A stretch of 5,346 nucleotides of DNA from Escherichia phage ECO95 1-6-1, in sequence record OR845275.1; one strand, written 5' to 3'. How positions within the stretch are numbered: position 1 is the first letter of the stretch; every line of letters starts with the position of its first letter. The notes under the pieces were generated by a model that was not told the DNA's origin, did not search any database, and saw only the letters and a program-made list of their open reading frames with translations. This document shows, piece after piece, positions 391 through 500 of the stretch. Both the position numbers and the translations under genes were made by a program.

Positions 391-500
391 ACAGTATTTG
401 GTATCTGCGCTCCACCAAGCCAGTTACCTTCGGGAAAAAGAGTTGGTAGCTCTTGATTCCGGCAAACGAACCACCGTTGGTAGCGGTGGTTTTTTTGTTT
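391..500 (+). ncRNA. RNAI: Antisense replication-control RNA I (~110 nt)
   Basis: Starts acagtatttggtatctgcgc and ends with stem-loop III plus ggtggtttttttgttt (rho-independent terminator), matching the ColE1/pMB1 RNA I architecture with a few loop/stem substitutions. Confidence 0.9.

Follow-up and report, generated by a model that had tools for sequence, protein, structure and literature searches.

Control by RNA I and RNA II, incompatibility determined by their loops, and the natural diversity of RNA I are textbook material for ColE1-type plasmids, and the locus considered here raises a specific question in this context, of whether an RNA I that departs from those of ColE1 and pMB1 in its hairpins would give its replicon a distinct incompatibility specificity. 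In ColE1, the ~108 nt at the 5' end of the primer RNA II have RNA I as their antisense transcript; loop-loop kissing starts the complex of the two RNAs, which is stabilized by Rom, and complete pairing blocks primer formation at the origin (PMC9458437, PMC8683028, PMC11012335). As RNA I acts in trans, plasmids that recognize each other's RNA II are incompatible. An earlier note on this DNA proposed that all three stem-loops differ from those of pBR322, and that the replicon may be compatible with standard ColE1/pMB1 vectors despite a near-identical ori core. Judged from alignments and predicted folds, the idea of a distinct specificity appears reasonable but overstated, as one kissing loop, and not three, is altered.

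Plasmid pC and its replicon

The window, by which we mean the whole stretch of 5,346 nt that was analyzed, is a complete circular plasmid with an overlap of 77 bases at its ends, and it is 100% identical throughout to NC_003457.1, plasmid pC (5,269 bp) of Salmonella enterica serovar Enteritidis, published in 2002 (Gregorova et al., as cited in PMC5864857). Near-identical relatives of pC are present in E. coli and Salmonella. One record considered as a cointegrate of pC, NZ_CP083894.1, was rejected, being a partial, frameshift-ridden dimer of pC itself. The RefSeq genes on pC are those for a restriction endonuclease of the Eco29kI family, a cytosine methyltransferase, MbeB, MbeD, MobC, and Rop. 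The restriction-modification (R-M) module (607-2399, minus strand) is of low GC, with the stop and start codons of its two genes overlapping at 1755, and it is placed between the ori and the mob region, as cargo is in other ColE1-type plasmids; the same R-M genes are also found on the plasmid pECO29. RefSeq further annotates, within the RNA II gene of both pC and ColE1, a 52-amino acid "replication initiation protein" (WP_071791734.1; 213-371, plus strand in pC), and, since replication of the ColE1 type requires no initiator from the plasmid, this ORF seems to belong to a spurious family spread by automatic annotation. The features outside RNA I are as follows.

1-502, minus strand: gene for the primer RNA II, 5' part, continuing across the circular junction (ColE1 ori homology)
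355-384, plus strand: RNA I promoter, -35 TTGAAG at 355-360, -10 TACACT at 379-384, start at A391 (homology with ColE1, read from the sequence)
510-538, minus strand: RNA II promoter, -35 TTGAGA at 533-538, -10 TAATCT at 510-515, 17-nt spacer (homology, read from the sequence)
607-1755, minus strand: C5 cytosine methyltransferase (RefSeq)
1755-2399, minus strand: Eco29kI-family (GIY-YIG) restriction endonuclease (RefSeq)
4622-4813, plus strand: rom/rop, RNA One Modulator (RefSeq WP_000165985.1; ORF found)
5207-5269, minus strand: RNA II 3' end and approximate RNA-to-DNA transition, oriV (ColE1 ori homology; the transition point is a putative placement)

The ori regions of pC and ColE1 are 91% identical over 743 aligned positions with a near-identical core, as had been said of the core in the earlier note. 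The RNA II promoter region is identical between the two in this alignment, and the RNA I promoter hexamers (TTGAAG/TACACT) are conserved with ColE1, yet they lie below the consensus cut-off of the promoter scan: a strict sigma-70 consensus scan of positions 300-620 returned no promoter, and both the RNA I and the RNA II promoters are assigned by homology only. What we take to be the RNA I promoter leans on this homology and on textbook knowledge of ColE1, and the 5' end of RNA II is presumably at ~502, by homology with pBR322 (GCAAAC to GTAAAC). The first ~108 nt of RNA II are complementary to RNA I. Just downstream of this overlap, at ~313-350, RNA II contains the sole strongly divergent patch of the pC/ColE1 ori alignment, 13 nt shorter in pC. 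The two copies of a ColE1 dimer from E. coli U90, described below, also differ from each other in the ~313-350 region, and the patch seems to move along with the allele of the 5' loop.

The RNA I gene of pC

An Rfam match to the RNAI family (RF00106) is located at 393-498 on the plus strand, with a score of 66.6 bits (gathering score 47; E 4.6e-11), and it covers the model in full length (1-102). At minimum free energy (-43.5 kcal/mol, z -4.7), the 108 nt at 391-498 form three hairpins preceded by a 9-nt tail, while none of 200 shuffled sequences folded as well, and a scan for intrinsic terminators returned a hairpin at 468-492 followed by a T-run, which is the last hairpin of RNA I. The RNA of pC lines up base for base with ColE1 RNA I, and its RF00106 score, its length and three stem-loops, and its antisense position upstream of oriV are those of the family. 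By these sequence features, 391-498 on the plus strand is the RNA I of a ColE1-type replicon and a full member of the RNA I family; its transcription and its inhibitory action we infer from homology. Its parts are the following.

391-498, plus strand: gene for RNA I, which represses the primer RNA II as its antisense RNA, 108 nt (RF00106, fold, ColE1 alignment)
391-399, plus strand: 5' single-stranded tail ACAGUAUUU (unpaired in the fold; identical in the ColE1 and pMB1 alignments)
400-428, plus strand: 5' hairpin (Tomizawa's III'), with loop CCACCA at 412-417 (fold, alignments)
431-461, plus strand: middle hairpin (II'), with loop UUGGUAG at 443-449 (fold, alignments)
462-498, plus strand: 3' hairpin (I') and U-run forming the terminator, with loop UUGGUAG at 477-483 (terminator scan, fold, alignment)

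What the earlier note had called loop I belongs to the 5' hairpin of RNA I, which is numbered III by Tomizawa and in PMC9458437.

Differences from known RNA I systems

The RNA I of pC was aligned with those of ColE1 (NC_001371.1), pECO29 (NC_001537.1), and CloDF13 (NC_002119.1), and with sequences taken as those of pMB1 and p15A, and the differences were mapped onto the predicted folds. What we take to be the pMB1 RNA I has 100% matches in shuttle and vector-derived PLSDB records, and what we take to be that of p15A also has 100% matches in PLSDB; both labels are provisional, as the descriptions of the matched records name no replicon. A sequence taken for the RNA I of RSF1030 was dropped when it proved identical to that of CloDF13. 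As a side observation, in about 100 species-representative assemblies from unrelated phyla (Streptomyces, Mesorhizobium, Bacillus, cyanobacteria, and metagenome-assembled genomes), short contigs contain an RNA I identical to that of pMB1/pUC, an evident contamination with cloning vectors.

The strings quoted from pC in the earlier note are in place (tccaccaag at 411-419, cgggaaaaag at 431-440, and gattccggcaaacgaaccaccgttgg at 455-480), and the pBR322/pMB1 strings that it had given for comparison hold as well, with 100% matches in PLSDB, matches in the vector contaminants, and the first hairpin printed in PMC11012335. The differences that it had listed for three stem-loops are all real; however, relative to ColE1 only the 5' kissing loop differs. 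This loop has changed from CUGCUGA to CCACCA, by three transitions and a 1-nt deletion, a genuine change of the 5' hairpin loop, as proposed. The change that had been assigned to loop II is, instead, a G inserted (within 432-434) low in the 5' arm of the middle hairpin, and of the changes that had been assigned to stem-loop III, those at 468 and 477 are indeed in the 3' hairpin, but the extra T of "gattcc" (457-458) belongs to the 3' arm of the middle hairpin. The structure prediction that the note had suggested does return three hairpins, with the label of loop II and part of that of stem-loop III misplaced. The extra G and the extra T pair with each other and lengthen the lower part of the middle stem by one G.U pair; the loop of this hairpin, UUGGUAG, is the same in pC, ColE1, pMB1, and p15A. 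The A-to-G change at 468 converts an A-U pair of the 3' hairpin into G.U in pC, with ColE1 and pECO29 possessing A. The C-to-T change at 477 concerns the initial base of the 3' loop, which is C in pMB1 but T in both pC and ColE1; since ColE1 and pMB1 fall in the same incompatibility group (PMC9458437), this change alone probably does not set groups apart. In the two remaining loops and in the 5' tail, pC and ColE1 are identical.

Among the named systems, ColE1 resembles pC in the length class of RNA I, the 5' tail, the stem of the 5' hairpin, the middle and 3' loops (both UUGGUAG), the predicted promoters of the two RNAs, the Rop protein, and the near-identical ori core, whereas it differs in the 5' loop (CUGCUGA versus CCACCA), in lacking the extra G.U pair of the middle hairpin, and in an A-U pair in the 3' hairpin where pC has G.U. 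The RNA I of pECO29, the Eco29kI plasmid published in 1998 (Zakharova et al., as cited in PMC3039593), is that of pC but for one base (RNA I position 78, window position 468), which is A in pECO29 and G in pC, and both the CCACCA loop and the inserted G.U pair are present in it. As a plasmid, pECO29 is smaller than pC (3,895 bp), with no annotated mob genes or rom, and it possesses the same Eco29kI-family R-M genes. The pMB1 type (pBR322, pUC) shares its tail, stems, and middle loop with ColE1, and its 5' loop is unlike that of pC in the same way as that of ColE1, while its 3' loop begins with C (CUGGUAG) where those of pC and ColE1 begin with U. p15A, the replicon of the pACYC vectors, presents a 5' loop only one base away from that of pC (CCUCCA versus CCACCA) and an identical middle loop (UUGGUAG), but its 3' hairpin is wholly different, and so are its tail and the stems that bear these two loops. 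The comparison that had been suggested, with ColE1, pMB1, p15A, and CloDF13, thereby shows a 5' loop matching neither ColE1/pMB1 nor p15A. MOB-suite assigns ColE1, pC, and pECO29 alike to rep_cluster_2350, despite their differing 5' loops, and RNA I specificity alleles are not distinguished by this replicon typing.

Loop pairing with RNA II of other replicons

The loops of RNA I are recognized elements of specificity (PMC9458437), as the earlier note had assumed, and the pairing of each loop with its counterpart in RNA II of another replicon was tabulated, with two pairs of known behavior as references. ColE1 and pMB1, known to be of the same group, pair at 7/7 positions in the 5' loop, 7/7 in the middle loop, and 6/7 in the 3' loop (7/7 with one G.U), while ColE1 and p15A, known to be compatible, form a run of 2 bp in the 5' loop, 7/7 pairs in the middle loop, and a run of 2 bp in the 3' loop. 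The RNA I of pC against RNA II of ColE1 falls between these references, with a 1-bp run in the 5' loop and 7/7 pairs in each of the middle and 3' loops; against RNA II of pMB1 the values are a 1-bp run, 7/7, and 6/7 (7/7 with one G.U). ColE1/pMB1 specificity, taken as three matching loops, is therefore not seen in pC RNA I, as the longest run in the 5' loop is 1 Watson-Crick pair. The loops do not match those of p15A either, with one central mismatch in the 5' loop (leaving 3-bp runs), an identical middle loop, and an unrelated 3' loop.

How far such differences translate into compatibility is a matter on which the literature offers statements in both directions. Single point mutations in RNA I can alter incompatibility, yet divergence of loop sequences was found to be "not sufficient to predict compatibility" (Chaillou et al., PMC9458437), and sequence alone therefore does not decide specificity. 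A literature search returned no experimental compatibility data for pC or pECO29, the pECO29 papers being silent on compatibility, and, on mutants in single loops, only general statements, in PMC9458437.

Natural occurrence and co-residence

The allele in question is not restricted to pC. A 43-mer spanning the pC-type 5' hairpin is present in 74 plasmid records from 73 of the 5,426 complete E. coli genomes, and the RNA I region of pC is 99-100% identical in 38 PLSDB plasmids, including 3.9-kb plasmids similar to pECO29. The CCACCA 5' loop allele is a common natural variant, already contained in the published pC and pECO29 and in dozens of other plasmids.

One natural case bears directly on the difference of a single loop. 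E. coli U90 possesses pU90-3 (5,597 bp), which encodes an EcoRI R-M system and whose RNA I is that of ColE1 save for the CCACCA loop, and it shares this strain with pU90-2 (NZ_CP068037.1), a dimer of ColE1::IS66. The latter, of 18.7 kb, is composed of two head-to-tail copies (1-9342 and 9343-18701) that differ in only three patches, one within the IS66 tnpA, one on the upstream side of RNA I, and one in its 5' loop. RNA I is exactly that of ColE1 in one copy, and the other copy has the loop of the pU90-3 type along with a nearby patch similar to pU90-3; in this ori patch, one of the copies is closer to the co-resident pU90-3 (98% versus 92.7%). The mosaic suggests either gene conversion or recombination between co-resident ColE1 replicons, or cross-talk in the assembly. 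Both alleles are present in one culture of U90, and U90, a single isolate with an assembly not free of doubt, is one natural case that supports coexistence. Co-maintenance could be enforced in this strain, as the cargo of the two plasmids, an EcoRI R-M system in one and colicin E1 with its immunity in the other, is selfish or selected.

Of the other genomes with this allele that were inspected, SY033 possesses four plasmids of the ColE1 family and E700025 and MLI105 two each, and two replicons are joined in the cointegrate pEC3-6. Every partner RNA I in these cases is unlike the pC type in two or more hairpins, and so they are uninformative as to the question of one loop. Accession neighbors of pC-type plasmids in Z1323CEC0001, STEC17-190, and SCU-176 were considered and set aside, as they are plasmids with Rep proteins and not of the ColE1 type. 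The pEC3-6 cointegrate also contains a tRNA-like element (6457-6542, minus strand; annotated as tRNA-Lys; Rfam tRNA, 46 bits) that adjoins the pC-type RNA I and is absent from pC. Among the matches listed, only U90 is in both the pC-loop and the ColE1 lists, so that at least one co-occurrence is seen with about two expected under independence, and neither depletion nor enrichment can therefore be claimed.

Variation among related RNA I genes

A scan for RNA I with one genome per species returned 120 loci, vector contaminants included. Among the natural RNA I genes of enterobacteria, those that share this 5' stem present at least six different 5' loops (CUGCUGA, CCACCA, CCACUAA, CCACUCA, CCACUUA, and CCGUGAA), while in the 11 relatives with ColE1-type hairpins 2 and 3 the middle and 3' loops are essentially invariant, with 1 of 14 columns variable. 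The stems of these 11 are paired in 98% of cells, and what variation remains is located in the lower part of the middle hairpin. Variable columns make up 5 of the 6 free columns of the 5' loop versus 15 of the 75 other free columns (Fisher p=0.003), a comparison that leaves out the stem columns held constant by the search pattern and that, the sample being small and related, is indicative only. This focus on the 5' loop fits diversification of an element of specificity, and such diversification is generally accepted for ColE1-like plasmids (PMC8683028).

Hairpins of RNA I also behave as exchangeable modules (loci L013, 115-217; L006, 1745-1846; L126, L049, and L074). One example is a plasmid of the colicin E1 family in SY033, with a ColE1-type 5' hairpin joined to CloDF13-like hairpins 2 and 3. 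Another is presented by Kluyvera and Erwinia, where a 5' hairpin of the pC type stands together with CloDF13-like or other hairpins; in Erwinia endophytica A41C3, two contigs have a common pC-type 5' hairpin and differing hairpins 2 and 3. A contig of chromosome size (contig_1, 4.8 Mb) of Erwinia tracheiphila ICMP 5845 contains two ColE1-type RNA I genes with identical middle and 3' loops, differing 5' loops (CCACUCA versus CCGUGAA), and differing lower stems of hairpin 2; these loci may represent integrated plasmids.

Mechanism and alternative explanations

By analogy with ColE1, the three hairpin loops of pC RNA I would kiss the complementary loops of RNA II, Rom would stabilize the kissing complex, and pairing from the 5' tail of RNA I would then zip up the duplex and stop primer formation by RNA II. 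The CCACCA loop would remove one of the three kissing contacts with RNA II of ColE1 or pMB1, and with this contact lost cross-inhibition would be weakened, thus making at least partial tolerance probable. The reading that we prefer, and hold to be fairly probable, is that of a ColE1-type RNA I with a loop swap that weakens cross-inhibition, with ColE1/pMB1 replicons probably tolerated at least in part. Some residual cross-talk, possibly in one direction, would be expected, rather than clean orthogonality, since two loops, the tail, and Rom are shared. A stronger proposition, that the swap of the single CCACCA loop is by itself a sufficient natural switch of specificity, possibly asymmetric through G.U wobble, is one to which we give slightly less than an even chance.

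The differences may, alternatively, be neutral for specificity, with pC remaining in the ColE1/pMB1 group because two loops, the 5' tail, and Rom suffice for cross-inhibition. This we consider rather unlikely, even though a good part of the molecule speaks for it: loops 2 and 3 and the tail of pC are those of ColE1, the 5' tail is where stable pairing nucleates, Rop is identical in the two plasmids (one protein accession, WP_000165985.1), pC, pECO29, and ColE1 share rep_cluster_2350 in MOB-suite, and loop divergence is "not sufficient to predict compatibility" (PMC9458437). The cohabitation of pU90-3 with a ColE1-type replicon in U90, the RNA I genes of the two being unlike only in the 5' loop, speaks against such neutrality, the focus of sub-lineage variation on the 5' loop fits selection for new specificities better than drift, and one point mutation in RNA I can be enough to shift incompatibility (PMC9458437).

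Cross-talk could also be one-directional, such that a ColE1/pMB1 plasmid, especially at high copy, would depress or displace pC, with pC having no effect on it. Asymmetry of this kind is possible because all three substitutions in the loop are transitions, which create G.U wobbles one way and C.A mismatches the other. In the 5' loop, RNA I of ColE1 with RNA II of pC would form 6 contiguous alternating G-C and G.U pairs (-2.6 kcal/mol), versus a longest run of 1 pair, with C.A mismatches (+1.9 kcal/mol), for RNA I of pC with RNA II of ColE1, and non-reciprocal compatibility has been seen experimentally among engineered loop variants of ColE1 (PMC9458437). An alternating G-C/G.U helix within a loop of 6-7 nt is weak, however, at -2.6 kcal/mol versus -8.4 to -9.6 kcal/mol for cognate pairings, in a calculation that ignores loop geometry and the 1-nt difference in loop length, and U90 maintains both types; one-directional cross-talk thus appears improbable to us, and weakened cross-inhibition with at least partial tolerance remains our preferred reading.

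Implications

Overall, the RNA I of pC is a common allele within the well-known diversification of the ColE1 control RNA, and not a new system; as both pC (2002) and the RNA I allele (in pECO29, 1998) have been published, it is of little import for basic biology. If the allele with a single changed loop is indeed compatible, the origins of pC and pECO29 would be natural, near-isogenic, ready-made partners for pMB1/ColE1 vectors, and they would offer a natural setting in which to test cleanly the number of kissing loops that have to differ. Typing that lumps these replicons together (rep_cluster_2350) would then miss functional groups, and, as ColE1, pC, and pECO29 share this cluster, which small plasmids of the ColE1 family can be stacked in one cell is not predictable by current typing. 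The resolution of typing in turn bears on the carriage of R-M, colicin, and resistance genes by multiple plasmids.
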